DNA of 64,000 nucleotides from an uncultured Prolixibacteraceae bacterium. GTDB taxonomy: Bacteria > Bacteroidota > Bacteroidia > Bacteroidales > FEN-979. Location: positions 40,248 through 104,247 of the forward strand of contig CAZTSX010000007.1 in NCBI GenBank assembly GCA_964616825.1. The letters are read 5' to 3'. Both the position numbers and the translations under genes were made by a program. Shown one piece after another: positions 979-55,588 of the stretch. How positions within the stretch are numbered: position 1 is the stretch's first letter; each line of letters begins with the position of its first letter. The notes under the pieces are model-generated. The model ran no database searches. It saw only the letters and a program-made list of their open reading frames with translations, and had not been told where the DNA came from.

Positions 979-1019
979 GTAAGTTTATTATTTAGAATTA
1001 TACTTGTTTCCTAATTCAT

Positions 1020-1059
1020 GGTGATGTGGTGACATGGTGATATGGTGAGTTGGTGAGTA
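1020..1059. repeat. imperfect tandem array, 5 x 8 nt (GGTGAnnT)
   Basis: Read directly as ggtgatgt ggtgacat ggtgatat ggtgagtt ggtgagta. It lies in the divergent spacer between the PurF-like and heparinase-like genes. Confidence 0.85.
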
Positions 1060-27790: not shown

Positions 27791-29526
27791 TTTTTTCTTG
27801 CATATTTTTGCTTACGTAGATAGAATTTAACCAGGCCAAAACCAGCAACCAGCAATATGGGTAATACGATGTTCAGAATCTGCCACAGGGTTCGCTGAGC
27901 AATCACTTTTGTGGGATCCAGCTGCCTCAATTGCAGTTCCCGTGACCGGATCGAAATCAGCCCGGAATCGTCGCAAAGGTAGTTCATGATGTTCAGTAAC
28001 AGATCCTTGTTCCCGAATGTTTGTCCCGTATATTGGTCAAAACCCAGGGGAAGGGGATACTTCTGTGTGATATGAAACTGGTTCCTGGCGATATCTCCAT
28101 CGGCAATGACAACCATTCGGTTAGGTTTGCTTTTCTTCCGAAATCCCAATTCCCGGTTCTGTTCTATCTCAGGAGGTAACCGAAAGAGATATGCGGAGGA
28201 GAATTCACCCTCAAGCAGCACGGCAAGATGCTGAGGTCCACTGCTGTACATTCGCGGATCAGGTTCTTCGCGAAGAATCTCCAGGTCGATTAAGGCGGGC
28301 GCATTCACGGTTCTGGAATAGGGTGATGAAGCCAGCAGGATTACTTTCTCTACGCCTTTTGCCTCCACCGTATCAATACTGCTGATAAACTCGGTCTTGA
28401 TCGCATTCAGTCCGTTGACAATCGGATGTTTTGATGCCGGGGTTGCCAGGGGGAAAAAGTACCACTCGAAAAAATCAAACCGTGGCTGGGATCCCATCTG
28501 ACCTGTTTTGATAGGAATTGGAAGTGCATTCAGATCCACCACCAGGTTCTTGTTCAACCTGACTCCATAATTGAAAAGCATATCGTCGAGATTGATGTCG
28601 TTGGTTAATCCGATGGTAGAACCAAATTCCTGAAGGCTGTCCATCTTAGCAAATACCGGATCAATCATCCACAATATCCGTCCACCCCGCATGATAAACT
28701 GGTCGATCAGAAACTTGTCCTTCTCGGTAAATGGCCTCTCGGGACCTGCAATAATTAATGCTTTATATTTATTCACCAAGGGCGACCCGGAAGAGTCAGT
28801 CTTCAGTCTCACCGTCAGGCTGTTGATCTGGCTATTGATATTGATCCTTTCAACATTGTAATACTCGGAGAGCGCTTCTTCAAAATAGATCATTTCAGGT
28901 TGTGATAATTCCCCTTGTCCTTCCAGGATCGCTACGCGTGGCTTGGTTGTATTGATCAACTTATCAATCGCGTTACTCAGGTTATATTCAAGCGTCTGGA
29001 TCGAGTTGTTCAAAACCTTTTCCGGATCCTGCCCCAGCTGTGTCATCAGTAACTGGACCGGAACCTCACGGCCCCGGTAAACTACAATAGTTCCCGGAAA
29101 AATAATAAGCTGAGAAGATTCCCCTTTACTGGAAATCCTGAGATCAGTTGGTTGAAGACCCTGCTCAGAAAGAAGCCGGTAGGTGTCGTTCCGCTCCTTC
29201 GTATTGGGACTGGCTGAAGGATTGATAAACTCAAAGTGGATGTGATCGCTGTAAGCTCTGAATTCATTGAGCATCTCCCGTGTTTCGTTAGCCAAACGGC
29301 GAAAACCCGGAGGCAAGTCTCCATCCAGATAGACTCGAAAGAAGACATCGTCGTCAAGATTTTTCAGCATATTTTTGGTGACGAGCGAGAGGGTGTACCG
29401 TTTTTCAGCTGTCAGGTCAATCCTCGTAAACACAAAAGAACCTATAATATTGATCAGAATGATGATCACAAGTGCCAGGATCACCTGAAAAATATTGTTG
29501 CGTTTTATGTTCTTCTTACGATTCAC
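27787..29526 (-). CDS. gldG: gliding-motility-associated ABC transporter accessory protein GldG
   Basis: GTG start. RIDLTAEKRYTLS near the N-terminal TM helix, a C-terminal TM helix, and position after gldF. Confidence 0.75.
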   Translation of the reverse strand: MNRKKNIKRNNIFQVILALVIIILINIIGSFVFTRIDLTAEKRYTLSLVTKNMLKNLDDDVFFRVYLDGDLPPGFRRLANETREMLNEFRAYSDHIHFEFINPSASPNTKERNDTYRLLSEQGLQPTDLRISSKGESSQLIIFPGTIVVYRGREVPVQLLMTQLGQDPEKVLNNSIQTLEYNLSNAIDKLINTTKPRVAILEGQGELSQPEMIYFEEALSEYYNVERININSQINSLTVRLKTDSSGSPLVNKYKALIIAGPERPFTEKDKFLIDQFIMRGGRILWMIDPVFAKMDSLQEFGSTIGLTNDINLDDMLFNYGVRLNKNLVVDLNALPIPIKTGQMGSQPRFDFFEWYFFPLATPASKHPIVNGLNAIKTEFISSIDTVEAKGVEKVILLASSPYSRTVNAPALIDLEILREEPDPRMYSSGPQHLAVLLEGEFSSAYLFRLPPEIEQNRELGFRKKSKPNRMVVIADGDIARNQFHITQKYPLPLGFDQYTGQTFGNKDLLLNIMNYLCDDSGLISIRSRELQLRQLDPTKVIAQRTLWQILNIVLPILLVAGFGLVKFYLRKQKYARKK

Positions 29527-29599
29527 GTTTCACATTTCGCTTTGCTTCGTCACTACGTTCCTCGCAATGACATTTTTCGCTTTTCGCTACCTCACTACC
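29520..29599. repeat. degenerate ~7-nt periodic array (TTCAC/TTCGC cores) filling the gldF-gldG spacer
   Basis: Reads gattcac gtttcac atttcgc tttgctt cgtcact acgttcc tcgcaat gacattt ttcgctt ttcgcta cctcact. G-poor on the plus strand. Confidence 0.6.
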
Positions 29600-30331
29600 T
29601 TACCACTTCCTGCTCTCCAGCCTCAACTTTGTCAGGATGATAAACAACGCCATCACACTAACGAAATAGATCAGATCACGGGTATCGATCACACCCCTAC
29701 TCATCGAAGAGTAATGTGCATTTAATCCGAGTGATTGAATCAGCAATCCTACACTGCCTGAAAGGATGAATGTGTAGATAAACTCAAATCCTATATAGAA
29801 AAAGAAGCTGAGAAAGATCGCTATTATGAATGATACAATCTGGTTATCAGACAGCGAGGAGGAGAATATCCCAATCGAAACAAAGGCCCCGCCGAGCATG
29901 ATCAATCCGATATATGATCCCCAGATACTTCCCAGGTCAAGGTTTCCCTGGGGTAAGCCCAGCCGGTAAACGGTATAAACATATATTAATGTGGGTATAA
30001 GTGAGAAGATTACCAGTACGATACCGGCAAAGAATTTCGCCAGGATCACCTGTAAATCGGTAAGCGGTTGAGTCATCAGTAATTCCAGGGTGCCACTCCT
30101 CTTTTCATCGGCAAAGGATCGCATTGTGATGGCTGGGATCAGAAAGAGAAAGATGAAAGGACCCAGGATGAAAAGCCCGTCAACATTGGCATACCCGAAA
30201 TCGAAAATATTAAACTGTAACGGAAAAACCCAAAGGAATAATCCTATGATCAACAGAAAGACCACGATCACAATGTACCCGATCAGCGAGTTCAGAAATC
30301 CGTTGAGTTCTTTTTTGAAAAGGGTATACAT
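29600..30331 (-). CDS. gldF: gliding-motility-associated ABC transporter permease GldF
   Basis: MYTLFKKELNGFLNSLIGYIVIVVFLLIIGLFLWVFP...FLFLIPAITMRSFADEKRSGTLELLMTQP is the typical GldF N-terminus. Confidence 0.8.
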   Translation of the reverse strand: MYTLFKKELNGFLNSLIGYIVIVVFLLIIGLFLWVFPLQFNIFDFGYANVDGLFILGPFIFLFLIPAITMRSFADEKRSGTLELLMTQPLTDLQVILAKFFAGIVLVIFSLIPTLIYVYTVYRLGLPQGNLDLGSIWGSYIGLIMLGGAFVSIGIFSSSLSDNQIVSFIIAIFLSFFFYIGFEFIYTFILSGSVGLLIQSLGLNAHYSSMSRGVIDTRDLIYFVSVMALFIILTKLRLESRKW

Positions 30332-30352
30332 GCAGCTTCCTTAGTGAACCTG

Positions 30353-30360
30353 CAAATTTA
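30353..30360 (-). promoter_or_regulatory. candidate -7 promoter box (TAAATTTG) upstream of gldF
   Basis: Plus-strand caaattta, 22 nt upstream of the ATG at 30331. Confidence 0.4.
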
Positions 30361-30388
30361 AGATTTTATTTGGATGCCGGAGGCCGGA

Positions 30389-31168
30389 TCATTCTACTTC
30401 AATAAGAACGGAGGTATCCGGCTTGAGTCCCAGCAGGCTGCTTGCATTGCCCTGGTTAATAGCGATTTCAAGATACCCGCTTGTACTGAAGAGCGCCAGC
30501 ATCTCTCCTTCGTGTTCGTCCTGGTAAGATTTGCTGATTTCCCGGATCTGGTATGTGGGTGACCGGAAGGTGATCACAAATTTCCGGTTGTTAACAGTCG
30601 CTTTGAACACCGATTCGGTGATATTTGTGAACGCATTCCCATAATGATCTACATAAATCACTTTTCCTTTGATCTGGCCATCGCGGATCACCGGCTGGAA
30701 AGCCATCTTTGTCAGCACCTTTTTTTTAGCCGAACCCAGTTCATCAATTGGTTTCCCTTCTATGATATGACACGCAGCTTTCACAAAGAGATCACGCGTG
30801 GAGAATGTGAAGTAATCGGAATCCTGAATGATATCCAGTTCAACGATCTTTTCCGGTTTTTCATCAAAGATGAGAGAGAAGATACCATTATCAGCTCCGA
30901 TAAAATAGTGCCCATTGTGAAACACAACGGTATGCGGACTTTCAATAGAGGCTTCGGTATTAACGCCTATGATATGGACAGTCCCTTCAGGGAAGCTGCG
31001 GTAAAAATTTCGAATGATGAACGCAGCCTGGTTGAGGTCGAACGGGGGAATGTCGTGGGAGACATCGACAATTACAGCCTCAGGGATCTGGCTGAGAATC
31101 GCCCCTTTTACAGCTCCCTGATAGTGATCTTTCAATCCCCAGTCACTTGTCAGTGTGATGACAGACAT
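30389..31168 (-). CDS. SAM hydrolase / SAM hydroxide adenosyltransferase family protein (DUF62)
   Basis: MSVITLTSDWGLKDHYQGAVKGAILS...DVSHDIPPFD. I chose Met16 of the tracked ORF as the start because the homology begins there. Confidence 0.7.
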   Translation of the reverse strand: MSVITLTSDWGLKDHYQGAVKGAILSQIPEAVIVDVSHDIPPFDLNQAAFIIRNFYRSFPEGTVHIIGVNTEASIESPHTVVFHNGHYFIGADNGIFSLIFDEKPEKIVELDIIQDSDYFTFSTRDLFVKAACHIIEGKPIDELGSAKKKVLTKMAFQPVIRDGQIKGKVIYVDHYGNAFTNITESVFKATVNNRKFVITFRSPTYQIREISKSYQDEHEGEMLALFSTSGYLEIAINQGNASSLLGLKPDTSVLIEVE

Positions 31169-31179
31169 TGAATAATTCG

Positions 31180-31187
31180 TACTTTTG
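31180..31187 (+). promoter_or_regulatory. candidate -7 promoter box (TACTTTTG) upstream of phoH
   Basis: 25 nt upstream of the ATG at 31213, inside a 44-nt divergent spacer. Confidence 0.4.
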
Positions 31188-31212
31188 TGAATCAAAGGTA
31201 TATATTTTTTCA

Positions 31213-32154
31213 ATGAGCGAGAAAATAATCCGGATTGAGTCGGTTGACCCCTTAGAGATTTTTGGCATCAATGATCAGAACCTTGAGGAGGTACGAAACT
31301 TCTACCCGAAACTGAAAATCGTCGCCAGAGACAATGAAGTCAAGGCTATTGGCGAAAAGTCCATTCTCCTGGATTTCGAGGAGAAATTCACAACTTTAAT
31401 TCTCCATCACGAAAACTTCGGAAGGCTGACAAAAGCGGATATTTCATACCTGCTGAGTGCTGATAATGGAGATAAACCTTTGCAGAAGGAGGGGCATCAC
31501 AAGGAGGTGCTTATCCACGGGCGAAATGGGTTGCTGATACGGGCCCGGACTCCCAACCAGCAAAAGATGGTTGAGGCTGTTGATCAAAATGACCTGATGA
31601 TTGCCATTGGTCCGGCCGGAACAGGAAAGACATATACGGCAGTAGCTCTGGCTGTAAGAGCGTTGAAGAACAAAGAGGTGAAGCGTATCATTCTTACACG
31701 TCCAGCTGTGGAGGCCGGAGAAAACCTCGGATTCCTGCCGGGTGACCTGAAAGAGAAACTGGACCCTTATTTACAACCTCTGTACGACGCACTTCGAGAT
31801 ATGCTCCCTACACAAAAGCTTCTCGCATTCCTGGAAGATGGAACAATTGAAGTGGCTCCTCTTGCTTTCATGCGAGGCCGAACCCTGAACAATGCATTCG
31901 CTATCCTCGATGAAGCTCAGAATACAACCCCCGGCCAGTTAAAGATGTTCCTGACACGGATGGGAGCTTCCGCCAAATTCATCGTCACCGGCGACATCAC
32001 CCAGATTGATCTGCCGGAGAAACAGGTATCCGGCCTGATCCAGTCACAAAGCCTGTTGAAAGATATCCCCGGTATCTCTTTCGTCTATCTCGATGAAAAA
32101 GACATCATCCGGCATAAGCTGGTAAGCCGGATCATCAATGCATATGGAAAATGA
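31213..32154 (+). CDS. phoH: PhoH-family ATPase
   Basis: Walker A IGPAGTGKTYTAVALAV, plus ILDEAQN and GDITQIDL. Confidence 0.9.
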   Translation: MSEKIIRIESVDPLEIFGINDQNLEEVRNFYPKLKIVARDNEVKAIGEKSILLDFEEKFTTLILHHENFGRLTKADISYLLSADNGDKPLQKEGHHKEVLIHGRNGLLIRARTPNQQKMVEAVDQNDLMIAIGPAGTGKTYTAVALAVRALKNKEVKRIILTRPAVEAGENLGFLPGDLKEKLDPYLQPLYDALRDMLPTQKLLAFLEDGTIEVAPLAFMRGRTLNNAFAILDEAQNTTPGQLKMFLTRMGASAKFIVTGDITQIDLPEKQVSGLIQSQSLLKDIPGISFVYLDEKDIIRHKLVSRIINAYGK

Positions 32155-32272
32155 TGGTGATGTGGTGATGTGGTGGTATGGTGGTGTGGTGGTATGGTGG
32201 TATGGTGGTATGGTGGTGTGGTGGTATGGTGGTGTGATGGTGCAATGGTGCGATGGTGCAGTGGTGCAGTGG
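32153..32272. repeat. tandem array, exactly 15 x 8 nt (TRTGGTGG drifting to TGCAGTGG)
   Basis: The units were read in register from the phoH stop codon to 5 nt before the four-helix-bundle stop. The first 88 nt contain no C. Confidence 0.95.
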
Positions 32273-32276
32273 TGAG

Positions 32277-32642
32277 TTATTTTTTTAGACTTTTCCGGGT
32301 TTTAGCGAGAACCATTAGAATCCTAAGTGTTTCTTCTTTTAATGGATAAATTGCCTTCTGATCAATCCATCCAGTCTCTTCAATCATCTCTAACCAAAAA
32401 AGGGTTTCATCACATTCCTCAACAACAATACACAACTTTGCATAATGCTCTGCTTTGGATCTGGCCCGGCAAGATGCCCGGAAGTTTGCAGCTACTGAGC
32501 TACTACTACGAATAATTTGTTTCCCGATAATCCGCAACTCTTCTCGATTTTTCATTTTAGCATATAACTTAATAACGTTAATGGCCATCTGCTTTGTTCT
32601 TTTTCTGAACTCATCATTAAACGATTCTCTTACTTGTTCCAT
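32277..32642 (-). CDS. four-helix-bundle protein (23S rRNA intervening-sequence protein family)
   Basis: IIRSSSSVAANFRASCRARSKAEHYAKLCIVVEECDETLFWLEM is typical of the family. Confidence 0.8.
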   Translation of the reverse strand: MEQVRESFNDEFRKRTKQMAINVIKLYAKMKNREELRIIGKQIIRSSSSVAANFRASCRARSKAEHYAKLCIVVEECDETLFWLEMIEETGWIDQKAIYPLKEETLRILMVLAKTRKSLKK

Positions 32643-32651
32643 GGCTTTTCT

Positions 32652-32689
32652 TTATTAATCCGGAAAAAAACAAAAGGTTATATATTCGG
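32652..32689 (-). repeat. copy b of the conserved motif
   Basis: The reverse complement reads ccgaatATATAACCTTTTGtttttttCCGGATTAATaa. It ends 9 nt upstream of the ATG at 32642. Confidence 0.8.
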
Positions 32690-32714
32690 TATAAAAAAAT
32701 CAATATTAGTTTTT

Positions 32715-32745
32715 CACCATGGCTCCATGGCACCACGGCACCATT
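32715..32745. repeat. tandem array, 4 x 8 nt (CACCAYGG), the inverse complement of the 32244-32274 units
   Basis: Reads caccatgg ctccatgg caccacgg caccatt. Confidence 0.8.
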
Positions 32746-32784
32746 AAAATATATATCTTTGCGAAAACAAAATAGCAGACCAAA

Positions 32785-33735
32785 ATGCAGAACGTAATCC
32801 TCAAAACCGAATTCGATTTTCCCGGGCAAAAGAGCCTCTATAAAGGAAAAGTTCGTGACGTATATAACATTAACGACAAATACCTGGTGATGGTCACCTC
32901 AGACAGGATCAGTGCCTTTGACGTGGTCCTTCCAAAAGCGATCCCTTATAAAGGGCAGGTGTTGAACCAGATAGCGGTGAAATTTCTTGATGCTACGGCT
33001 GATATTTGTCCCAACTGGAAGATAGACAGCCCTGATCCCAGCGTTTCGATCGGGAAGTTTTGTACTCCTTTCCCAGTGGAGATGATCATTCGGGGTTACC
33101 TGACCGGAAGTTCATGGCGCTCATATAAAAAAGGAGCCAGGGAGATTTGCGGAGTACCTGTCCCGGAAGGAATGAAAGAGCACGAGCGCTTTCCCAAACC
33201 CATTGTAACACCCACTACCAAAGCTACGATAGGGCACGATGAAGATATCTCCAAAGAGGAAATCATCAGCCAGGGATTGGTTTCAAAGGAGGATTATGAC
33301 CTGTTGGAGAAGTATACCACCGATCTCTTCAGGCGTGGCACCGAAATGGCTAAAAAGAAAGGATTGATCCTGGTAGATACGAAATATGAGTTTGGCAAAG
33401 GTGATGATGGGAGAATCTATCTGATCGATGAGATCCATACGCCCGATTCCTCTCGTTATTTTTACCTTGATGGATACGAAGAGCGACAGGCGAAAGGCGA
33501 ACAGCAAAAGCAACTTTCGAAGGAGTTCGTAAGGGAGTGGCTTATAGATCAAGGCTTTATGGGACATGAAGGGCAACAAGTACCAGAAATGACCGATGAA
33601 TTCATTCAACAGGTATCCGATCGCTACATTGAACTCTATGAAATGATCACTGGTGAGAAGTTTGTAAAAACGGATACGACAGAAGTTATCAAACGCGTTG
33701 AACAGAATATTTTCAACTGGTTATCAACACATTGA
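32785..33735 (+). CDS. purC: phosphoribosylaminoimidazole-succinocarboxamide (SAICAR) synthase
   Basis: YKGKVRDVY and TSDRISAFD motifs. At 316 aa it is the long form common in Bacteroidota. Confidence 0.9.
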
Positions 33736-33749
33736 CAAATAGAACGCGG

Positions 33750-34982
33750 ATGATCTCTTTTTCACCTCCAAGAATGGATAAAAAAATCGTCGATGCTGTT
33801 GTCGACACCCTCTATTCAGGTTGGATCACTACCGGGCCAAAGACAAAGAAATTCGAGAAGATGCTTACCGCTTACGGCAGCCAACAGGCAACCCTCTGTG
33901 TCAGCTCAGGTTCAGCCGGACTCGAATTTGTTCTTCGCTGGTTTGGTGTCCGGGAAGGTGATGAAGTGATCGTGCCTGCTTATACCTATTGTGCAACAGC
34001 AAACGTTGTTCCTCATTGCGGGGCAAAAGTGATTTTTGTGGATGTCGGAGAAGATTTCAACATCTCTGTTGAAGCGATAGAGAAGGCTATCACACCCCGG
34101 ACAAAGGCGATAATCCCTGTTGACGTAGCCGGATTTCCCTGTGATTACAATGAAATCAATGCCCTGGTTAACAGAACGGATATCCGAAAGAAATTCATGC
34201 CTGAAACGAAGGAGCAGAAGGAGCTGGGCCGGATCCTGGTACTTTCTGATGCAGCTCACTCGATCGGAGCCTGGTACCACGGTAAACGAACAGGGTCGCT
34301 TACCGATATAACGGTTTACTCTTTTCATGCAGTTAAAAACCTCACAACAGCCGAAGGAGGAGCGATTTGTTTGAATCTTCCATCTCCATTCGACAATGAA
34401 GCCATCTACCAGAACCTCAATATTAAATCCCTGCATGGACAAACCAAAGATGCGCTGGCCAAAACACAGATCGGAAACTGGCGCTACGACATTATAGAAC
34501 TCGGTTATAAGTTCAATATGACCGACATTCAGGCAGCCATGGGCATAGTGGAACTTGAGCGGAATGATAACGATATGCTGGTCCGCCGAAAAGAGGTCTT
34601 CGATCGCTACACTGCAGCGCTCTCTGCCTATCCATGGGCTCAGCTACCCATTTATGAAACTCTTGAGAAACAATCGTCCTACCATGTTTTTCTCTTGCGG
34701 ATTAATGGGATCAATGAAGAACAGCGGGATGAGATCATCCGGGAGATTTTCAAACGGGATGTGGCTGTGAATGTCCACTTTGTACCTTTGCCGATGATGA
34801 CCTACTACAAAGATGCCGGATACCGGATGCCGGATTATCCGATATCCTATGACAACTATTCCAGGGAGATCACGCTTCCGGTTTATTATGACCTGACAGA
34901 TGAGATGGTTGATGAAGTAGTACGGGCAGTAGTAGAGGCAGTTGAAGAGGTAGTGAAAAAAAAAATTAGCTCCGACATATAA
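33750..34982 (+). CDS. DegT/DnrJ/EryC1/StrS-family PLP-dependent sugar aminotransferase
   Basis: SSGSAGLEFVL, DAAHSIGA and SFHAVKNLTTAEGG (PLP lysine). I prefer the ATG at 33750 over the tracked TTG at 33732. Confidence 0.85.
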   Translation: MISFSPPRMDKKIVDAVVDTLYSGWITTGPKTKKFEKMLTAYGSQQATLCVSSGSAGLEFVLRWFGVREGDEVIVPAYTYCATANVVPHCGAKVIFVDVGEDFNISVEAIEKAITPRTKAIIPVDVAGFPCDYNEINALVNRTDIRKKFMPETKEQKELGRILVLSDAAHSIGAWYHGKRTGSLTDITVYSFHAVKNLTTAEGGAICLNLPSPFDNEAIYQNLNIKSLHGQTKDALAKTQIGNWRYDIIELGYKFNMTDIQAAMGIVELERNDNDMLVRRKEVFDRYTAALSAYPWAQLPIYETLEKQSSYHVFLLRINGINEEQRDEIIREIFKRDVAVNVHFVPLPMMTYYKDAGYRMPDYPISYDNYSREITLPVYYDLTDEMVDEVVRAVVEAVEEVVKKKISSDI

Positions 34983-35009
34983 CCTTTTGGCACTAAACCG
35001 GATTAATGG
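34977..35009 (+). repeat. copy c of the conserved motif
   Basis: Reads atATAACCTTTTGgcactaaaCCGGATTAATGG. It starts on the DegT stop codon and lies 39 nt upstream of the ATG at 35049. Confidence 0.8.
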
Positions 35010-35012
35010 TGA

Positions 35013-35044
35013 GATTATTCAATTATTCATCCATTAATTCTATC
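35013..35044. repeat. degenerate tandem array, 4 x 8 nt
   Basis: Reads gattattc aattattc atccatta attctatc. Confidence 0.55.
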
Positions 35045-35048
35045 AGCC

Positions 35049-35777: not shown

Positions 35778-35780
35778 CAC

Positions 35781-37348: not shown

Positions 37349-37369
37349 TCCATTCCCCGGTTTTATTCG

Positions 37370-37377: not shown

Positions 37378-37402
37378 CTGAAAACCAATAAACTTATTTA
37401 TT

Positions 37403-38239: not shown

Positions 38240-38262
38240 TATCTGCCTGGTCTGTTAAACTC

Positions 38263-39650: not shown

Positions 39651-39713
39651 CCACCATCCAATATCCAACATCTAACATCCAACATCTAACATCCGGCATC
39701 CAACATCTCATTT
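39651..39713. repeat. tandem array, 9 x 7 nt (CYAACAT)
   Basis: Reads ccaccat ccaatat ccaacat ctaacat ccaacat ctaacat ccggcat ccaacat ctcattt. Nearly G-free on the plus strand. Confidence 0.9.
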
Positions 39714-39730: not shown

Positions 39731-41029
39731 ATGAAGATCGAGATCATCAACATCGGCGATGAGATCCTCATTGGACAGGTTGTCAATACCAACGCAGCCT
39801 GGATGGCGGAGGAGCTGAACCGGATTGGGTTCAAGGTGTTTCAGTTCACGGTAATTTCTGATAAGCGTGAACACATCCTTCAGGCTTTGACTGATGCTCA
39901 GAACCGTGCCGATCTGGTCCTGGTCAGCGGGGGTATCGGACCGACCAGAGACGACATCACCAAACAGACCATTTGTGAGTTTTTCGATACAAAACTGGTG
40001 TTCAATGAAGATGCTTTCCGCGATATTGAGACCCTCTTCGGTCAACGGGGATATAAAATCACCGAGGTAAACCGCAAACAAGCTGAGTTGCCAGAAAATT
40101 GTATCTCACTGCCTAACCGAATGGGAACCGCGAGAGGGATGTGGTTTGAGAACAAAATGAAATTCGAAATTCGAAATTCGAAATTTGAAAATAAAGAATC
40201 GTGGATCGCGGATCCCAGATCCCAAATCTTTGTGTTTTTACCAGGTGTCCCGTTTGAAATGAAGGATCTTTTCACCCGTGAGGTCATCCCACGTTTGAAG
40301 GAACGGTTCACTCCACAGGTAATCTATCATAAAACCGTTATGACACAAGGTAAAGGCGAGTCGTTTATGGCTGATATCATAGAGGAGTGGGAGAACAACC
40401 TGCCTGAGCACATCAGCCTTGCTTATCTCCCTCAACCGGGGATTGTCCGGCTCCGGTTTACCGCCGTGGGCGAGCAGCAGGATGAGCTGGAGAAAGAGGT
40501 CGATAACGAGATCCGGAAGTTACACAAACTCATTCCCGATCTGATATTCGGATATGATACGGATACCCTGGAAGCGGTTGTCGGACAGCTCTTAATGGTG
40601 AAAGGTCAATCGCTCGCCACGGCGGAAAGCTGCACCGGCGGATATATTGCTCACCTGATCACATCCATTGCAGGCAGTTCCAGTTACTTTAAAGGATCAA
40701 TAGTCGCTTACTCTAACGAAGCCAAAGAGAATATCCTTTATGTGAAAGAGGATAGCCTGGTCGCACACGGAGCTGTGAGTCAGCAGGTAGTACTTGAGAT
40801 GGCCCTGGGAGCACGGGATCGTTTCAGAACCGATTATTCAATTGCTACTTCAGGGATTGCCGGTCCAACAGGAGGAACCCAGGAAAAACCGGTTGGAACT
40901 GTTTGGATTGCCATTGCCACACCCGAACGGGTTTTTGCTAAGCAATACCTTTTCGGAGATCACCGGGAACGAAATATCAGAAGAACGGCTTTGCAGGCGT
41001 TGAATTTGTTGCGGAAAGAGATGTTGTGA
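39731..41029 (+). CDS. cinA: CinA-family protein (MoCF-like domain plus PncC-type nicotinamide-nucleotide amidohydrolase domain)
   Basis: MKIEIINIGDEILIGQVVNTNAAW..., C-terminal TAESCTGG and SGIAGPTGG motifs. At 432 aa it carries an extra loop segment. Confidence 0.9.
   Translation: MKIEIINIGDEILIGQVVNTNAAWMAEELNRIGFKVFQFTVISDKREHILQALTDAQNRADLVLVSGGIGPTRDDITKQTICEFFDTKLVFNEDAFRDIETLFGQRGYKITEVNRKQAELPENCISLPNRMGTARGMWFENKMKFEIRNSKFENKESWIADPRSQIFVFLPGVPFEMKDLFTREVIPRLKERFTPQVIYHKTVMTQGKGESFMADIIEEWENNLPEHISLAYLPQPGIVRLRFTAVGEQQDELEKEVDNEIRKLHKLIPDLIFGYDTDTLEAVVGQLLMVKGQSLATAESCTGGYIAHLITSIAGSSSYFKGSIVAYSNEAKENILYVKEDSLVAHGAVSQQVVLEMALGARDRFRTDYSIATSGIAGPTGGTQEKPVGTVWIAIATPERVFAKQYLFGDHRERNIRRTALQALNLLRKEML
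40155..40230. repeat. two adjacent heptamer arrays (GAAATTC x4, GGATCNC x3) lying in frame inside cinA
   Basis: Reads aaattcgaaattcgaaattcgaaatttgaaaat...gtggatcgcggatcccagatcccaaatc. It encodes KFEIRNSKFENKESWIADPRSQ. Confidence 0.85.
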
Positions 41030-41535: not shown

Positions 41536-41600
41536 TCATTCTACTTTATTTTATTTTTTTGCACAAATCAATACTGGTTTATCTCGTTAATTATTTCAAA

Positions 41601-43103
41601 ATGAAAAAGTTATTTACAATTATTGTCGTGCTATCTCTGTTTACCATAGCCTGTCAAAATCATTCAACCCAGTATGCAGCAGCCAGCCAAGACTATGAAA
41701 GTCTCAGTTTTACCATTTTCTCAGAAGATTTGGAGCTATTTGTTGAATTTCCCACGTTGATCGTAGGTGAAACAGCAACTTTCATCACACACTTTACGCA
41801 ACTTAGTGATTATAAACCTCTGCTAAAGGGAGAGTTGACACTTTCGTTGACAGGGCCATCCACTCAATCTGTTGTTGTCGAAGGCCCGGTACGACCCGGA
41901 ATATTTGAACCATCAATTATTCCTGGCTCGTCAGGTGTTTTTACACTGAGTTTTACCATTGAAACAGAAACCCTCATAGTAGAGTTCATCATTGAAGAGC
42001 TGGAGGTATTTGCTGATGATAAAGCAGCGGAGGCACATGCGGCAGAATGTGAAGCTCCTGATCATGGAGACGGTGGCATCAGCTTCCTGAAAGAACAAGC
42101 CTGGAAGATCGACTTCGAAACACAATCGGTGAAGCGATCAGACTACCAGGAGATAATCAAAACGACAGGGAAAATTTTACCGGCCCAGGGAGATGAATAT
42201 ATGATCACGGCCAGCCATGGAGGAATTGTGGTATTTCGGAAAAACAATATCTTTTCGGGGAACAAAGTTCGGAAGGGAGAATTGTTGTTCAATATTTCAG
42301 CAAGTGGATTGGTTGATGACAATATCAAAGAGCAATACCTTCAGGCATTGGCAAAATACGAAAAAAGCAAAGCCAACTACATCCGCAATAAGTTTCTAAT
42401 ACAAGATAAGCTAATCACTGAGAGTGAGTTTCTTGAAAGCAAATATGAGTTCAAGGTCGACAGCAATGCCTTTCAGGTGATCCTGAAAAATTATTCTGAA
42501 GGAGGCGGTGAGGTCAGAGCTGCTGCAAATGGATTTATTCAGCAGGTATATGTATCTGAGGGGGAGTTTGTTGAACAAGGCCAACTCCTGGCCTCTATTT
42601 CATCAAATCAGAACCTCATTATAGAGGCAGATGTCCCGCAGCGATATTTTCACAAACTGGGATTCATCACCTCAGCGAATATCGAGACGCCTTACGACAA
42701 TAAAATCTATGATATTGATAACCTGAATGGTAAGCTGGTCTCCTATGGCAGAAACACAGATCCTTCCGGGCTGTTCACACCGGTCTATTTCCAGATTAAA
42801 AATCCGGGAAAATTAATCCCCGGATCCTTTATCGAAGTCTATCTTAAAGCCAAACCTGTAAGGGATATACTGGTCATCCCACGAAGCGCCCTCATTGAAG
42901 AGTTCGGCAACTATTATGTCTTTATTCAGACCGGTGGGGAATCGTATGCAAAAAGTGAGGTTGCGATCGGGAACGATGATGGAATCCATGTAATGATTCG
43001 CGAGGGTCTTCATGAAGATGACCGAGTGGTTACGAAAGGAGCCTATCGAATCAAATTAGCCTCCATGAGCAGTGATCTTCCATCACATGGTCATGTGCAT
43101 TAA
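41601..43103 (+). CDS. RND efflux periplasmic adaptor (CzcB/CusB, HlyD family) lipoprotein
   Basis: Lipobox-like LFTIAC, the adaptor barrel/lipoyl segments, an extra ~150-aa N-terminal domain and a C-terminal SHGHVH tail. Confidence 0.75.
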   Translation: MKKLFTIIVVLSLFTIACQNHSTQYAAASQDYESLSFTIFSEDLELFVEFPTLIVGETATFITHFTQLSDYKPLLKGELTLSLTGPSTQSVVVEGPVRPGIFEPSIIPGSSGVFTLSFTIETETLIVEFIIEELEVFADDKAAEAHAAECEAPDHGDGGISFLKEQAWKIDFETQSVKRSDYQEIIKTTGKILPAQGDEYMITASHGGIVVFRKNNIFSGNKVRKGELLFNISASGLVDDNIKEQYLQALAKYEKSKANYIRNKFLIQDKLITESEFLESKYEFKVDSNAFQVILKNYSEGGGEVRAAANGFIQQVYVSEGEFVEQGQLLASISSNQNLIIEADVPQRYFHKLGFITSANIETPYDNKIYDIDNLNGKLVSYGRNTDPSGLFTPVYFQIKNPGKLIPGSFIEVYLKAKPVRDILVIPRSALIEEFGNYYVFIQTGGESYAKSEVAIGNDDGIHVMIREGLHEDDRVVTKGAYRIKLASMSSDLPSHGHVH

Positions 43104-43124
43104 TTGAACTAAAAATTTGAAATC

Positions 43125-46100
43125 GTGCTAGATAAAATCATAAAATATTCGCTCAACAACCGGCTTATTATTTTGGTGAGCGGTCTGTTAATCCTATTGG
43201 CCGGATCGTTTATCACCTCCAGAATAGACATTGATATTTTTCCGGACCTGAATGCACCCACAGTTGTTGTGATGACAGAAGCTCACGGGATGGCTCCTGA
43301 AGAGGTGGAAAAGCTGGTCACATTTCCCATAGAAACTGCTATCAATGGGGCGACAGGGATCCGCCGGGTACGCTCATCATCTTCCACCGGATTTTCCATT
43401 GTATGGGCTGAGTTCAACTGGGGAGTTGACATCTATAATGCCCGGCAGATTGTGAGTGAGAAACTGCAAACGATCAATGATGCATTGCCCACAGGAGCCG
43501 GCAATCCCATGCTTGCACCACAATCTTCGTTGCTGGGAGAGATCATGATCTTCAGCATCAGCTCCGACTCCATCGATCCGCTTCAACTGCGCACACTGGC
43601 CGAATGGGAAATCCGGCCTCAGCTTCTTGCTGTTGGAGGTGTAGCCCAGATAACTATCATCGGAGGAGAGTATAAGGAATACCAGATCCTGGCAGATCCT
43701 TATCAGATGAAAAATTATGAAGTGACGATGAATGAACTGCTGGAAGCGAGTCAATCGACCAACGAGAATGCTTCAGGAGGCTTTATCAACGAATTTGGGA
43801 ATGAGTATATCATCAGAGGGATTGCCCGAACTACGGATATCGAGGAGATCGGGAATACAGTGATCAAAATGCGTGAAGGAGCTCCGGTGTTACTGCAAAA
43901 TGTTTGCACGGTAAAAATTGGAGCTGCTCCTAAAATCGGGGATGGATCCTACAGGGGAGAGAGCGCCGTGGTAATCACAGTGAATAAACAGCCCAATATA
44001 AATACCATTGACCTTACCGAAGAGCTGAATACAACGATTAGTGAAATCCAGGAAAAACTTCCGGATTACATCCAGTTCAATAAAGATATTTTTGAGCAAT
44101 CTGATTTCATTGATATTGCCGTAAGCAATGTAAGGAAAGCACTCCTGGAAGGGGCGGTATTCGTGGTTGTTGTTTTGTTTATTTTTCTGATGAGTTTTCG
44201 AACAACAATCATCTCTGTGGTGGCGATCCCCCTCTCTCTCCTCGTCACTATTCTAGCATTGAAGTTATTCGGCTTTACAATAAATACCATGAGCCTGGGT
44301 GGGATGACCATTGCCATCGGCTCCCTGGTTGACGATGCGATTATTTACGTAGAGAATATTTATAAGCGCCTGAAAGAGAATGTTCGAAAAGAGAAATCAA
44401 AGAGGGAGAGTTCTCTTCAGGTAGTACTGGATGCCTCCCGTGAGATCAGGTCATCCATTCTCAACGCCACAATCATCATCATCGTGGCTTTTATTCCATT
44501 GTTTTTTCTGGGTGGCATGGAAGGCAGGATGTTAAAACCTCTGGGGATAGCCTATATCGTTTCTCTCTTTGCCTCCATGATTGTCGCCATGACTGTGACG
44601 CCGGTGCTTTGCAGCTATATGCTCACAAATGAGAAACGACTGATGAAACGGAAAGTAGGCAGCTGGATAACCAGGAATCTGACCTATCTCTATATGGTCA
44701 GTCTCAAGCAATCACTCAGGAAGAAATGGGTTGTTGTTTCTGTTTCTACGATCCTCTTCATTGTGGCCATTATTGTCTTTCTTTCATTCGGACGGACCTT
44801 CCTCCCTCCTTTCAATGAAGGGTCCCTGGCAATCAATATAGCCACAGTTCCCGGAATTTCCCTTGACGAGTCAAACCAGATCGGTGTTGAAGCCGAAAAA
44901 ATACTTCTAACGATTCCTGAAGTGATCACCACATCCCGCAAAACAGGAAGAGCTGAACTGGCGGAGCACTCATTTGGAGTTAATGTGGCTGAGATTGAAA
45001 CTCCTTTTAAGTTACAAGAGCGATCAAGGGCAGCGTTCCTAAAGGATGTGAGGGATAAACTGGGACAAATTCAGGGGATCATTATTGAGGTGGGTCAGCC
45101 AATCACTCACAGGATAGATCACATGCTTTCAGGAACCCGCAGCAATATTGCGATAAAATTGTTTGGCACTGATCTCAGGGAGATGTATTCGCTGGCTATA
45201 GAGATCAGAAACAGTATTGAAAATGTGGACGGGATTGCAGATTTAAATGTGGAGCAACAGGTCGAAATCCCTCAGATCCAGATCAAGCCAAAACGAGATA
45301 TGCTGGCCAGATATGGGATCCCGGTCAGCGATTTTATCCGATTTGTGGATGTAGCTTTTGGAGGAGAGAAGATCTCTGACGTATTTGAAGAGGAACGATC
45401 GTTTGACCTGGTATTACGTTTTGGTGATCCATACAGAGGAAATATAGGGGCTATAAATAATGCACTCATTGACACATATGATGGAAAGAAGATCCCGCTG
45501 GCAACGATTGCTGATATTTCATCTACTTCAGGACCTACCTCAATTAACCGGGAAAATGTGAAACGAAAAATCGTGATCTCAGCCAATATCGCCGGGCGGG
45601 ATCTGCGAAGTGTTGTCAATGATATTCAAAAACATGTCGACGAAGAGATCATTTTTCCGGAAGGGTATTCCATCCAATACGGGGGACAGTTTGAAAGTGA
45701 AGAGAGAGCTTCCCGGATCATCCTGTTTACCTCCCTTGCGGCAATCATTGTCATATTCTTAATCCTCTACCAGGAGTTTAAAAAATCATCCCTGGCATGG
45801 ATTATTTTGCTCAACCTTCCCCTGGCGCTGATTGGTGGCGTAGCCAGTATCTGGCTGACCTCAGGTGTGCTGAGTATTCCTGCCATCATTGGCTTTATCA
45901 CTCTCTTTGGCATTGCTACCCGGAATGGCATTCTACTGGTTTCTAAATACCAGAATCTTGACAAGGAGGGATATCATCTTCACAATACCGTGATCAAGGG
46001 ATCCATGGACCGGCTGAGTCCCATTCTGATGACTGCGTTAACTGCTGCGCTCGCGCTGATTCCATTGGCGATCGCAGGCGACAAACCGGGGAATGAGATA

Positions 46101-46220
46101 CAAAGCCCTATGGCCGTTGTCATTCTGGGAGGATTATTGTCCTCTACCTTGTTGAATGTATACGTTGTTCCGGTAGTTTACACGCTTATGAATTCGAAAA
46201 AAACAAATTATGAAAAATAA
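43125..46220 (+). CDS. CusA/CzcA-family heavy-metal efflux RND transporter
   Basis: 1031 aa with a GTG start and 12-TM RND architecture. Typical N-terminus KIIKYSLNNRLIILV and the DDAIIYVENI motif. Confidence 0.9.
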   Translation: MLDKIIKYSLNNRLIILVSGLLILLAGSFITSRIDIDIFPDLNAPTVVVMTEAHGMAPEEVEKLVTFPIETAINGATGIRRVRSSSSTGFSIVWAEFNWGVDIYNARQIVSEKLQTINDALPTGAGNPMLAPQSSLLGEIMIFSISSDSIDPLQLRTLAEWEIRPQLLAVGGVAQITIIGGEYKEYQILADPYQMKNYEVTMNELLEASQSTNENASGGFINEFGNEYIIRGIARTTDIEEIGNTVIKMREGAPVLLQNVCTVKIGAAPKIGDGSYRGESAVVITVNKQPNINTIDLTEELNTTISEIQEKLPDYIQFNKDIFEQSDFIDIAVSNVRKALLEGAVFVVVVLFIFLMSFRTTIISVVAIPLSLLVTILALKLFGFTINTMSLGGMTIAIGSLVDDAIIYVENIYKRLKENVRKEKSKRESSLQVVLDASREIRSSILNATIIIIVAFIPLFFLGGMEGRMLKPLGIAYIVSLFASMIVAMTVTPVLCSYMLTNEKRLMKRKVGSWITRNLTYLYMVSLKQSLRKKWVVVSVSTILFIVAIIVFLSFGRTFLPPFNEGSLAINIATVPGISLDESNQIGVEAEKILLTIPEVITTSRKTGRAELAEHSFGVNVAEIETPFKLQERSRAAFLKDVRDKLGQIQGIIIEVGQPITHRIDHMLSGTRSNIAIKLFGTDLREMYSLAIEIRNSIENVDGIADLNVEQQVEIPQIQIKPKRDMLARYGIPVSDFIRFVDVAFGGEKISDVFEEERSFDLVLRFGDPYRGNIGAINNALIDTYDGKKIPLATIADISSTSGPTSINRENVKRKIVISANIAGRDLRSVVNDIQKHVDEEIIFPEGYSIQYGGQFESEERASRIILFTSLAAIIVIFLILYQEFKKSSLAWIILLNLPLALIGGVASIWLTSGVLSIPAIIGFITLFGIATRNGILLVSKYQNLDKEGYHLHNTVIKGSMDRLSPILMTALTAALALIPLAIAGDKPGNEIQSPMAVVILGGLLSSTLLNVYVVPVVYTLMNSKKTNYEK

Positions 46221-49543: not shown

Positions 49544-49786
49544 CTACCTCACCAAAACCAATTTCTTCGTTGCCGTTTTGTTCCTGGCATTTACCCTGCA
49601 AACATAAACCCCTGCCGATTACGATCCTGCATCCCAAATATACCGGTTTGCGCCTTTATACCCATTGAGAGAAATTTCATCAACAACCTGCCCGAACTGG
49701 TTATATATCATGATCTCCACTTCTCTTGGTTTCTCAAATTCAAACTCAATAGTTGTTGAATAAGAGAATGGGTTCGGATAATTCGC
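49544..49786 (-). pseudogene. orphan 3' remnant of a T9SS-cargo gene (C-terminal sorting domain only, with an internal stop)
   Basis: Minus-strand translation gives NYPNPFSYSTTIEFEFEKPREVEIMIYNQFGQVVDEISLNGYKGANRYIWDAGS*SAGVYVCRVNARNKTATKKLVLVR*. There is a TAA at 49619-49621 and no upstream coding body. Confidence 0.65.
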
Positions 49787-49811
49787 AATTCGTAAATCGA
49801 AAATTGAAATG
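49780..49811. repeat. degenerate tandem array, ~4 x 7 nt (AATTCGN)
   Basis: Reads aattcgc aattcgt aaatcga aaattga. The same unit family occurs in the cinA insert and at 47409-47436. Confidence 0.65.
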
Positions 49812-54174: not shown

Positions 54175-55056
54175 ATGAAAACAAGAAAATTTTTACCCCT
54201 ATTGATTCCGGTTGGGATCTTATTGACAACGGTCTTCATCCTTGCCGGATGTGCATCCAAAAAGAACATCTGGGGGAGTAAAGAAAAAGGGCTGATCCTG
54301 AGTTATCGTTTCCCGGAATCCAACTCTCTCAAGTATATCGCTTCTGGTGATATGGTTCAGAACATGGAGATGATGGGGCAGAAGTTTGAGGTTACCCTGA
54401 AGAACTATCAGGTTTATTCTCTCAAAACAGACGATCCTTCATCAGATCCACTAACCCTGGATATCACTGTTGACACAATGTATCTCAAAATGAAAACTCC
54501 GATGAACGAAACCACCCCGGGAATGGAAGAGGTAATCGGGCGGAATTTTGCCATCAAACTTACACCAATTGGTAAGGAATCGGATTTCTCACAGGCGGAG
54601 GAGATCACCTTTCAACTGGGGGGTGAAACCCGTAGCCTGAGTGCCGAATTCCAGGGATTCTTCCCTGATTTCCCTGCTAACCCGGTAAAGCCCGGAGATT
54701 CATGGAGCTATCAGGATACGATCAAAGAGGAGTCCGGAGGAAACTGGTTGCACCTTTATATCAATTGCACGGCTACTCTTGAAGGGTACGAGACGCTGAG
54801 CGGAAGGGAGTGCGTCCGGGTTACGGTCCATTTCAGTGGTACGTTACTGGGAGAAGGGATTACACGGCAAGTAGAGATGAAAACAACCGGTGATATTTCA
54901 GGCACCGACACCTATTTCTTCGATTACAAGGAAGGGATTTTGGTGAAAATCAGATCAGAAGGAACAGCTTCTTCTGTGACCAAGACCAGCGGTGAAAGAG
55001 AGATGACGATCCCGGCGACGAGAGAGTTTGCGAAGGAGGTGGTGCTGGAAGAGTGA
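54175..55056 (+). CDS. hypothetical lipoprotein
   Basis: Lipobox FILAGCASKK. 293-aa ORF with no recognised family. Confidence 0.6.
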   Translation: MKTRKFLPLLIPVGILLTTVFILAGCASKKNIWGSKEKGLILSYRFPESNSLKYIASGDMVQNMEMMGQKFEVTLKNYQVYSLKTDDPSSDPLTLDITVDTMYLKMKTPMNETTPGMEEVIGRNFAIKLTPIGKESDFSQAEEITFQLGGETRSLSAEFQGFFPDFPANPVKPGDSWSYQDTIKEESGGNWLHLYINCTATLEGYETLSGRECVRVTVHFSGTLLGEGITRQVEMKTTGDISGTDTYFFDYKEGILVKIRSEGTASSVTKTSGEREMTIPATREFAKEVVLEE

Positions 55057-55110
55057 CAAATCAGACAAGTGATCCAGTGACCAAGTAATCCAGGTATGAA
55101 GTGAAGGTTT
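55055..55110 (+). repeat. degenerate 8-nt array (GACAAGT / GATCCAGT units); left copy of a direct-repeat pair
   Basis: Reads gacaaatcagacaagtgatccagtgaccaagtaatccaggtatgaagtgaaggttt and starts on the TGA stop at 55054-55056. Confidence 0.75.
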
Positions 55111-55178: not shown

Positions 55179-55523
55179 ATGGATGAGACGAAGAAGCTCC
55201 ATGTCTTATGGACCACAGGGGAGAAAGATGTTGCTATCCGGATGATATTTCAGTACCTGATGAATGCCAAAGCCAATGGCTGGTGGGATGAGATCAACCT
55301 GATTATCTGGGGGCCATCTGCAAAGCTTACAGCTGAAGACAAGGAGATCCAGGAAGAGATCCAGATGTGCCTCGACAGCGGGATGACCATTCAGGCATGC
55401 CTCGTTTGCACCGATTCTTATGGAGTTACAAAAAAAATAATCAGGCTGGGTATTGATGTCCGGCTGATGGGAGAACCGTTTACAGAGTATCTGCGTGGTA
55501 AGGATACAGTGATTACGTTTTGA
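55179..55523 (+). CDS. DsrE/DsrF-like family protein
   Basis: 114 aa. KKLHVLWTTGEKDVA...INLIIWGPSAKL...IQACLVCTDSYGV resembles the DsrE-fold small sulfur-relay-like proteins. Confidence 0.55.
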   Translation: MDETKKLHVLWTTGEKDVAIRMIFQYLMNAKANGWWDEINLIIWGPSAKLTAEDKEIQEEIQMCLDSGMTIQACLVCTDSYGVTKKIIRLGIDVRLMGEPFTEYLRGKDTVITF

Positions 55524-55524: not shown

Positions 55525-55588
55525 GACAGGTTAGACAAGTATCCAGTTATCCAGTTATCCAGTAATCCAGCTATCTGGTTATCCACTC
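55525..55588 (+). repeat. tandem array, ~6 x 8 nt (ATCCAGTT) preceded by GACAGGTTAGACAAGT; right copy of the direct-repeat pair
   Basis: Reads gacaggttagacaagt atccagtt atccagtt atccagta atccagct atctggtt atccactc. The last two units encode the C-terminus (EWITR*) of the convergent peptidase gene. Confidence 0.85.

Follow-up and report, generated by a model that had tools for sequence, protein, structure and literature searches.

In the genome of an uncultured Prolixibacteraceae bacterium (assembly GCA_964616825.1), a tandem array of 15 octamers lies between phoH and purC, beside a small antisense gene for a four-helix-bundle protein of the TIGR02436/PF05635 family. We analysed this array within a 64,000-nt stretch of contig CAZTSX010000007.1 (positions 40,248 to 104,247 of the forward strand), here called the window. 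We conclude that the array is probably the expanded arm of an inverted array pair around that gene, the whole forming a cassette of ~630 nt that resembles the intervening sequences (IVSs) of rRNA and was inserted into a once-short phoH–purC spacer. The cassette has a distinct architecture, is absent from close relatives and carries a main array that varies among strains by whole units, and the same architecture recurs at every family member that we sampled. Arrays of this class are already known; their association with the gene appears to be the new part.

The array and the gene between phoH and purC

The main array (32155..32274, plus strand) comprises 15 (TGGTGGTA)-type units on the 3' side of the four-helix-bundle open reading frame (ORF). 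Tandem Repeats Finder (TRF) assigned it a period of 8, 15.0 copies, 88% matches, no indels and a score of 121, bearing out the 15 octamers in exact register described in an earlier, sequence-only reading of this DNA. That reading also placed the array correctly between two stop codons: onset is at the TGA of phoH (32152–32154; gene 31168/31213..32154, Pfam PhoH 3e-91), and the array ends ~5 nt short of the TAA of the opposing ORF (minus strand, 32277–32279). Neighbouring units differ at a mean of 1.07 positions compared with 2.56 for units at least five apart, in line with the gradual drift that had been described. An initial stretch free of C is likewise present; with the first C at offset 91, it spans 90 nt, not the 88 first counted. 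Within the array, a homogeneous core of TATGGTGG/TGTGGTGG units (about 32169–32232) is followed by the TGGTGCNN units nearest the ORF (about 32236–32272), which make up the left arm of an inverted repeat.

The right arm is a short degenerate octamer array of CACCATGG x3.8 (32715..32745, plus strand; TRF score 46), located 72 nt upstream of the ORF start. It is an inverted copy of the main-array units at 32236–32266, with 24 of 30 positions identical, and its reverse complement reads AATGGTGCCGTGGTGCCATGGAGCCATGGTG. Both arrays had been noticed before; what was overlooked is that they are inverted copies bracketing an inserted four-helix-bundle gene. When minus-strand RNA is folded at minimum energy, the arms pair around the ORF (-130.9 kcal/mol, z = -2.1), and an inverted-repeat score of 30 places the cassette within the top 0.7% of the 1,566 genes used as controls.

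The gene that forms the cargo of the cassette (32277..32642, minus strand) encodes 121 amino acids (aa) and belongs to TIGR02436/PF05635, '23S rRNA intervening sequence protein', S23p/Avd-like. Its product matches Pfam PF05635 at 2e-14, NCBIfam TIGR02436 with 78 bits against a cut-off of 24, and PDB 2rld at 1e-14. The ORF is 100% conserved in eight assemblies and absent from sister populations.

Ralph and McClelland reportedly described, in 1993, Leptospira 23S-rRNA IVSs carrying an S23p ORF. The 23S rRNA of Coxiella burnetii holds an IVS of 428 nt, a selfish element whose S23p ORF has a predicted 14.2-kDa product, whose inverted repeats form a stem cut by RNase III, and whose 5' region consists of tandem GACAGAT heptamers, three in some strains and two in others (PMC4990558). 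Because its S23p ORF, inverted arms and variable repeats match those of the Coxiella element, the window cassette has the defining anatomy of an IVS outside rRNA. Both ORFs belong to PF05635/TIGR02436 (121 aa here, a predicted 14.2 kDa in Coxiella), both are bounded by inverted repeats able to form a stem, both lie beside strain-variable tandem units (heptamers there, octamers here), and both elements occur sporadically among close relatives in the manner of selfish elements, the cassette being absent from the sister populations and the four nearest metagenome-assembled genomes (MAGs). The two differ in location, since the cassette occupies a spacer between protein genes and is antisense to both neighbours, not in helix 25 or 45 of 23S rRNA. 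They also differ in that the arms here are octameric with one expanded to 15 units, and in that RNase III cleavage is known for Coxiella and other rRNA IVSs but only predicted for the cassette.

Comparison with relatives marks the block as an insertion. The whole block (32155..32784, no strand assigned) covers 630 nt from the phoH stop to the purC start and consists of the main array, the ORF, the inverted array and ~40 nt on the purC side. phoH and purC adjoin each other, with spacers of 35–90 nt, in the four nearest reference MAGs (L001, L002, L091 and L004). Genome and metagenome scans gave no intermediate relative above 75% PhoH identity, so intermediate states were read from Logan contigs. 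Sister populations, ~93–95% identical to the window (runs X9, X12, X13 and X15), have zero depth over 32313–32716. Their phoH–purC junction either skips 622 nt, reading ...GGAAAATAGCAGACCAAAATG, or holds a different 140-nt filler, the initial 30 letters of which are not array-like. The letters AAAAT stand on both boundaries of the 622–633-nt insertion (GGAAAATGA / ACAAAATAG, that is GGAAAATGA ... ACAAAATAGCAG; 32152–32154 / 32776–32784), and the near-empty site of the sister populations reads GGAAAATAGCAG. This AAAAT is either a 5-nt target duplication or mere microhomology. The cassette shares with miniature inverted-repeat transposable elements and insertion sequences its terminal inverted repeats, its presence/absence polymorphism and a possible 5-nt duplication (AAAAT), whereas it contains no transposase, its arms are tandem arrays of variable length where those elements have fixed terminal inverted repeats, and the duplication may be microhomology.

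Past the right arm (32745–32784), ~25 nt upstream of the purC start, TATATATCTTTGCG contains the box TAtcTTTG, a candidate Bacteroidetes-type -7 promoter-like element (consensus TAnnTTTG). The right arm lies between the ORF start and this box. Because the box sits just past the right arm, the inserted block may supply the purC promoter.

Eight independent assemblies (JGI, ENA) span the main array and are 99.7–99.99% identical to window positions 26785–39735. The earlier suggestion that copy number might differ between strains was borne out. Four of the fetched loci have 15 units, L082 has an 11-unit allele produced by a 32-nt loss within the homogeneous TATGGTGG core, and L086 has a 16-unit allele with one additional TATGGTGG, all with identical flanks. 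The 11-, 15- and 16-unit alleles sit in flanks that are otherwise 99.9% identical, and the 32715 array is invariant across the eight assemblies. The main array is also found in Logan contigs of two studies; one clean contig spans an 11-unit allele in run X5, from a different study, and in three other runs the k=31 contigs are interrupted within the homogeneous core. Many marine metagenome contigs carry a purC protein identical to that of the window, and an exact-protein look-up of PhoH with its TTG start gave no match. In L087 1–105 (ENA ERZ23499048 scaffold_818, contig start), the ORF-proximal part of the main array is joined not to phoH but to an unrelated repeat-rich CCCTGTCACCCTTTCACCTTTGCACC...; this junction reflects either the collapse of a second genomic locus with ATGGTGG units during assembly or a genuine rearrangement at the array.

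Several other identities were considered for the array. It is not a clustered regularly interspaced short palindromic repeat (CRISPR) array, as its units are contiguous 8-mers without spacers. Scans of the window for tRNA and Rfam families, rRNA included, gave no match, and a scan of 31800–33000 for sigma-70 promoters and intrinsic terminators gave background levels only, with no canonical terminator in the spacer. Array RNAs were dropped as candidate structured elements, since C/A-rich strands are unfolded and the G/U-rich strand folds weakly. With regard to phase variation, both flanking ORFs have the main array on their 3' side. Gene callers applied to L081–L086 call spurious 33–59-aa ORFs through the stop-free octamer array (for example, L081 5360..5491).

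Arrays flanking PF05635 genes across six phyla

We asked how other members of the gene family are flanked, choosing homologues blind to repeats, by size of contig or taxon only. The 21-gene sample covers Bacteroidota, Cyanobacteriota, Spirochaetota, Bacillota, Chloroflexota and one Melioribacteraceae MAG. All 21 PF05635 genes examined have arrays abutting both ends, in inverted orientation, with 7-nt units (8-nt in the window) that differ from genome to genome. Arrays on both sides were found in the blind chromosomal contexts of Flavobacterium acetivorans, Mariniflexile, Crocinitomicaceae and a Bacteroidia MAG; at ten plasmid-borne genes from Bernardetia, Chondrinema, two Nostoc, Euhalothece, Planktothrix, Pseudanabaena, Treponema, Monoglobus and Chlorohelix; at a remote homologue (L003); and at three further chromosomal cases, one being the Melioribacteraceae MAG. 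A tblastn search over loci fetched for other reasons returned only two further family members, at L031 and L127, and these are exactly the genes between inverted same-unit heptamer arrays that had already been listed blind. Examples of the arms include (TTAGTGA)x15 / (TCACTAA)x4.9, a perfect 31-nt (AATTCAA)n inverted repeat and (CCAGTTA)x6.4 / (ACTGGTC)x12.6.

Flanks were also scored for inverted repeats. The 21 genes score 23–62, and the 1,566 control genes have a mean of 17.6 and a 99th percentile of 29. In each of three 24–40-kb regions, the four-helix-bundle gene ranks first among 26–39 genes, and in the 40-kb region of Bernardetia the sole two heptamer arrays are its flanks. The ATG of the ORF often falls inside the last 5' unit and the stop codon inside the first 3' unit, and the 5' arm has more G than C in 14 of 18 cases. 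The top-scoring control genes are not hidden family members; they encode Imm-NTF2, TsaE, ABM, ankyrin and helix-turn-helix proteins. We also rejected L009 as a family member, given its weak hidden Markov model (HMM) match (E = 0.0017) and the lack of flanking arrays.

The usual sites are operon spacers: between the adaptor and pump genes of resistance-nodulation-division (RND) systems in four genera, between hsdS and hsdR in two phyla, and between a helicase and a methylase gene. The RND junction inserts are those of L170, L171, L172 and L181 (Flavobacterium, Mariniflexile, Crocinitomicaceae and Chondrinema), and the hsdS/hsdR (type I restriction) inserts are those of L179 and L189 (Monoglobus and Melioribacteraceae). 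The window has an RND operon of its own (41559..46220), without a four-helix-bundle insert. On two cyanobacterial plasmids the gene has other neighbours: in Nostoc punctiforme pNPUN01 (L182) it is directly upstream of xisH-xisI, and in Pseudanabaena pPg_04 (L184) directly upstream of cas1. Heptamer repeats and XisH/XisI share a phylogenetic distribution (PMC4679880).

The PF05635/TIGR02436 family has at least 8,000 homologues among the matches listed. In the searchable literature we found no described connection of this family with heptamer arrays other than in rRNA, which is no proof of absence, and the strict association across phyla thus appears new to that literature.

Other arrays in the window and in Bacteroidota

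The sequence-only reading proposed that 7–8-nt arrays occur in the window beyond chance, and our counts agree: TRF found 7 period-7/8 arrays with a score of at least 40, compared with 0.03 expected. Arrays of other periods are barely enriched (7 versus about 2.4 expected). The expectation comes from 100 segment-wise dinucleotide shuffles on a curated gene map, in which the start of saccharopine dehydrogenase is placed at 39597 instead of 39834 and cinA occupies 39731..41029. When the 13 regions listed earlier were scored by autocorrelation at lags 6–10 against shuffles, nine stood out (1020, 32153, 32715, 35013, 39651, 40155, 49780, 55055 and 55525; p<=0.005), three were marginal (29520, 50765 and 54132; p 0.04–0.06) and 47409 was not distinguishable (p 0.62). 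Likewise, the description of intergenic spacers as built from arrays is accurate for 32155–32276, 39598–39730 and 55524–55570 but not for all spacers.

Several of these arrays share units. A solo octamer array of ATGGTGAT x4.9 (1018..1056, plus strand; TRF score 50, p=0.0005) belongs to the main-array unit family, and the 15-nt stretch ATGGTGATGTGGTGA is common to it and the start of the main array. It is enclosed by 899 nt without a convincing ORF (363–1261), unusually long in a window that is 91–92% coding, which may be a decayed gene or element. A solo heptamer array of CCAACAT x8.1 (39651..39707, plus strand; TRF score 72) occupies the 133-nt divergent spacer between the starts of saccharopine dehydrogenase (39597) and cinA (39731); it opens with the unit CCACCAT, which is ATGGTGG in reverse complement. 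Depth spikes indicate many other loci with the CCAACAT unit, one on another contig of the same genome. The start-codon choice of saccharopine dehydrogenase (471 versus 478 aa) shifts inside this array.

An in-frame heptamer array lies inside cinA (40150..40295, plus strand; TRF score 57), in which GGATCNC-like units come after GAAATTC x4.6. The insertion lengthens a loop by ~21 residues, query residues 138–165 corresponding to 7 residues of PDB 6mr3. In a sister population the array has 104 letters instead of 146, a difference of 42 nt, or 6 heptamers and 14 codons; because this change keeps the frame, selection evidently filters slippage products to multiples of three units. A short degenerate heptamer array of AATTCGN (49780..49811, plus strand; p=0.0005), below the TRF score threshold of 30, belongs to the GAAATTC unit family of 40159 in another register.

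Two further arrays surround a 114-aa ORF (55179..55523; weak DsrE/YedF-like matches) in direct orientation. The first (55055..55110, plus strand; p=0.0025) is a degenerate octamer array with its onset on a TGA stop. The second (55525..55588, plus strand; TATCCAGT x5.8, TRF score 64) fills the convergent spacer after the ORF and also starts on a TGA stop. The unit order GACAnnT-AGACAAGT-ATCCAGT is common to both. Sister populations keep the ORF and differ at both arrays: a minor variant has the 55055 array swapped for a different 39-nt filler, and at 55525 there are 4 nt instead of 36 nt, a 32-nt difference. In run X5 the TATCCAGT unit occurs on four other contigs at genome depth, and depth spikes together with extra contigs at genome depth point to further loci with CCAACAT, GAAATTC and TATCCAGT units. 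Across the window, sister populations diverge precisely at arrays.

The window contains a single PF05635 gene, and a search of six-frame translations with the family HMM found no degenerate remnant beside its other arrays, so these are solo. They are solo or hairpin-type members of the same class, long simple sequence repeats (LSSRs), with genome-specific unit families that recur at several loci. A type IX secretion system (T9SS) sorting domain encoded in the window, together with the PhoH relatives, assigns this DNA to an uncultured marine lineage of Bacteroidales.

The sequence-only reading had considered a lineage-specific mechanism for the arrays. We found instead that, in 80 Bacteroidota phoH loci (1.3 Mb), TRF arrays most often have a period of 7 (27.6 per Mb, compared with 9.2 per Mb for period 8); the phenomenon is therefore phylum-wide, and the window, at about 109 per Mb, is ~3-fold denser than these loci. 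In 1.88 Mb of Bacteroidota loci, arrays number 412 per Mb in intergenic and 14.7 per Mb in coding DNA, a 28-fold difference in the direction anticipated. There, arrays are ~2-fold commoner in spacers holding a gene 3' end than in divergent spacers, and 23 of 99 start within 5 nt of a stop codon, which agrees with the frequent onset at stops reported from the window. The strong strand skew reported with it did not generalize: relative to transcription, these loci have no consistent skew.

Arrays are also related to one another. Pairs within a locus share a unit in 39.7% of cases, compared with 6.4% between loci, and of 87 strong arrays, 33 lie less than 1 kb from an inverted partner, where 4.4 would be expected. 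Inverted pairs are spaced either by up to 91 nt, leaving only a hairpin, or by 206–448 nt, and hairpin-only pairs outnumber those that contain an ORF. In Flavobacterium spp. (L059 8444–8843, L076 8588–8910 and L140 2590–2911), inverted (ATTTTAG)n arrays surround a 250–336-nt non-coding core with a conserved stretch, cttacaggtgcgcaaaaataccaaaat, and an internal hairpin. This array-flanked core may be related to the cassette but lack its gene, or it may specify a small RNA.

The sequence-only reading knew of no named element class for such arrays; one exists. LSSRs have units of 5–11 nt, heptanucleotides being the most abundant, and slippage combined with a polymerase contact of ~7 nt has been proposed for heptamer repeats (Mrazek 2007, as related in PMC4679880 and PMC4692102). 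Poor mismatch repair of loops above 3 nt provides a rationale for their persistence (PMC4060949; Huang & Mrazek 2014, in summary). The main array has each attribute of the class: a 5–11-nt unit, a length beyond chance, a mainly non-coding position and whole-unit differences between strains. Like LSSRs generally, the arrays described here are tandem 7–8-nt units beyond chance, intergenic, length-polymorphic among close relatives and explicable by slippage. They differ in that the class is purely statistical, with no associated gene or paired inverted architecture, whereas the main array is part of a cassette and the units form genome-specific families.

Cyanobacterial and Geobacter hepta- and octamer repeats are related cases. 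Mazel is said to have described cyanobacterial short tandemly repeated heptamers in 1990 under the name STRR. Spacers of Xanthomonas and Nostoc contain an excess of variable heptamers (PMC4692102), and the STRR of Calothrix and Nostoc likewise form multi-locus tandem families in spacers, but in heterocystous cyanobacteria and not Bacteroidales, and with units of 7 nt, not 8 as in the main array (PMC4692102). The sampled four-helix-bundle genes of Nostoc, Planktothrix and Euhalothece lie between inverted STRR-like heptamer arrays, and a published link between STRR and PF05635 was not found in the searchable literature. Heptamer arrays are also known in a few Bacteroidetes (PMC4679880). The TAACTGA direct repeats found in marine Beggiatoaceae, in cyanobacteria and in a few Bacteroidetes resemble ours as intergenic heptamer arrays that abut start and stop codons, reach long arrays in Bacteroidetes such as Gramella and Aequorivita, and are phylogenetically sporadic; they differ in having one conserved unit, mostly in 2–6 copies just upstream of start codons with a proposed role in translation regulation (PMC4679880), whereas the arrays of the window and of Bacteroidota comprise many unit families without consistent orientation. 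In Geobacter metallireducens, families of 4–5 tandem 7- or 8-nt units occupy dozens of loci, often as opposite-strand pairs; in contrast to the arrays here, they are read as regulator binding sites or RNA elements, have a fixed short copy number and carry no reported PF05635 link (PMC2700814).

Mechanism, alternatives and meaning

How might such a cassette persist? In a transcript, the arms would pair into a long, imperfect stem closing a loop that contains the ORF. RNase III would cut this stem, as it does in rRNA IVSs, rendering the insertion harmless to host transcripts, and the cut may gate translation of the ORF. Stem formation and processing are suggested here by analogy with rRNA IVSs. 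We further infer that length changes arise by replication slippage: slipped loops of 7–8 nt are too long for efficient mismatch repair, so tandem arms of this period would expand and contract, yielding the homogeneous TATGGTGG core and the 11-, 15- and 16-unit alleles.

Some observations weigh against this account. At 24/30 (score 30), the arms of the window rank fourth from the bottom of the series in identity, and the z-score of the fold is only -2.1. The long homogeneous core falls outside the paired part of the arms and is therefore left without an assigned role beyond slippage. Since the ORF runs antisense to phoH and purC, the cassette does not form an 'intervening sequence' inside a single host transcript, which sets it apart from most of the other genes sampled. 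RNA runs belonging to the same study had zero coverage of the organism's cassette and yielded only a relative's fragment. Some other small genes (Imm-NTF2, ankyrin and ABM) also score high for flanking inverted repeats. Finally, only about 6 of 127 arrays in the Bacteroidota sample adjoin a PF05635 gene; because most do not, the cassette accounts for the main array but not for the population of arrays as a whole. Solo arrays are nevertheless not independent accidents.

The data are compatible with either order of events, the cassette creating arrays or landing in them. If arrays came first, 'empty hairpins' would be older, and four-helix-bundle genes would insert into them or be captured, for example by recombination between matching arrays. 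The excess of hairpin-only pairs (<=91 nt), the fact that arrays far outnumber PF05635 genes, the recurrence of unit families at many loci of one genome, and the inverted arrays around Flavobacterium non-coding cores and a few other small genes all fit this order. Yet the Bernardetia region has only the gene-flanking pair, and the sister phoH–purC junction is an ordinary short spacer, or a filler with non-array-like letters over its initial 30 nt, instead of an empty hairpin of ATGGTGG units. In addition, start and stop codons are often embedded in terminal arm units, which suggests that gene and arms co-evolved. We regard arrays-first as doubtful, though not fanciful.

The arrays could instead be binding tracks for a pentameric, Avd-like four-helix-bundle protein, serving autoregulation, mobilization or propagation, with the RNA stem secondary. 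The family resembles Avd, a nucleic-acid partner in diversity-generating retroelements (PMC10053308), and the homologue structure 2rld was deposited with five chains. A strict association across six phyla with a unit particular to each genome would suit such a role, as would the G-rich 5' arms. The putative binding is hard to reconcile with units that vary widely among fairly similar proteins, and with Coxiella, where the protein is probably not made and the IVS persists all the same (PMC4990558); we consider it unlikely. No diversity-generating retroelement context was seen at the cassette, whose immediate neighbours are phoH and purC with no longer repeat pair; the rest of the window was not scanned for reverse transcriptase.

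A simpler proposal is that these are plain LSSRs, grown in place by slippage from chance duplications in unconstrained spacers, with no function or link to a gene. Unit-step changes do fall in the most homogeneous part of the main array, non-coding enrichment is strong and strand bias inconsistent, the phenomenon is phylum-wide with unrelated units, and a slippage and mismatch-repair rationale has been published. Slippage, however, accounts for length change and not for seeding or pairing. It would leave unexplained why all 21 PF05635 genes but not the controls are bracketed by inverted arrays, why arrays of the same genome share units 6-fold more often than those of different genomes, why inverted partners are so frequent, and why unit order is kept across loci (the 15-nt identity of 1018 and 32156; the order at 55055 and 55525). 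As an explanation of the whole, we find it quite improbable.

It is very improbable that the main array is a functional 3' untranslated region, terminator or G-quadruplex element of phoH. Its onset on the phoH stop, its G/T-rich sense strand with many GG tracts, the lack of a canonical terminator in the spacer, a metatranscriptome contig of a relative that joins a diverged phoH end to an array, and the general preference of arrays for gene 3' ends could be read that way. Relatives do without the array, however, its copy number varies freely from 11 to 16, its sense-strand RNA is essentially unstructured (centroid 0 kcal/mol), its GG tracts allow two tetrads only, and array orientation relative to transcription is inconsistent. 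An assembly or sequencing artefact, to which the breaks of Logan k=31 contigs in the core and the ends of contigs L087 and L088 in or near the array might point, is refuted by the eight JGI and ENA assemblies that span the array and by the contig from a separate study that cleanly spans the 11-unit allele; absence from independent assemblies, which the sequence-only reading named as a sign of artefact, was looked for and not found.

We therefore return to the array as one arm of an inserted, IVS-like cassette. A wider proposal, which we put forward tentatively and would not yet bet on, is that PF05635/TIGR02436 genes with inverted heptamer arms constitute a widespread, unrecognized class of selfish cassettes in operon spacers and 23S rRNA. 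The gene or its RNA stem would possibly be causally tied to the seeding and spread of LSSR/STRR families, with solo and hairpin-only arrays as derivatives or trans-mobilized substrates. If true, this tie would bear on the patchy distribution of LSSR/STRR in Nostoc, Xanthomonas, Coxiella, Bacteroidota and Beggiatoaceae.

Arrays of 7–8 nt break short-read assemblies, cause spurious ORF calls and serve as ready strain markers in metagenomes. They are the commonest long simple repeats in bacteria, and their origin, unit families and patchy distribution have lacked an explanation since the 1990s; the S23p/four-helix-bundle family, for its part, has no known role outside diversity-generating retroelements. 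The strict association of array and gene offers an experimental handle on both problems. It also suggests that 'intervening sequences' are a general type of cassette that settles between ordinary genes, such as RND adaptor and pump, hsdS and hsdR, or phoH and purC.

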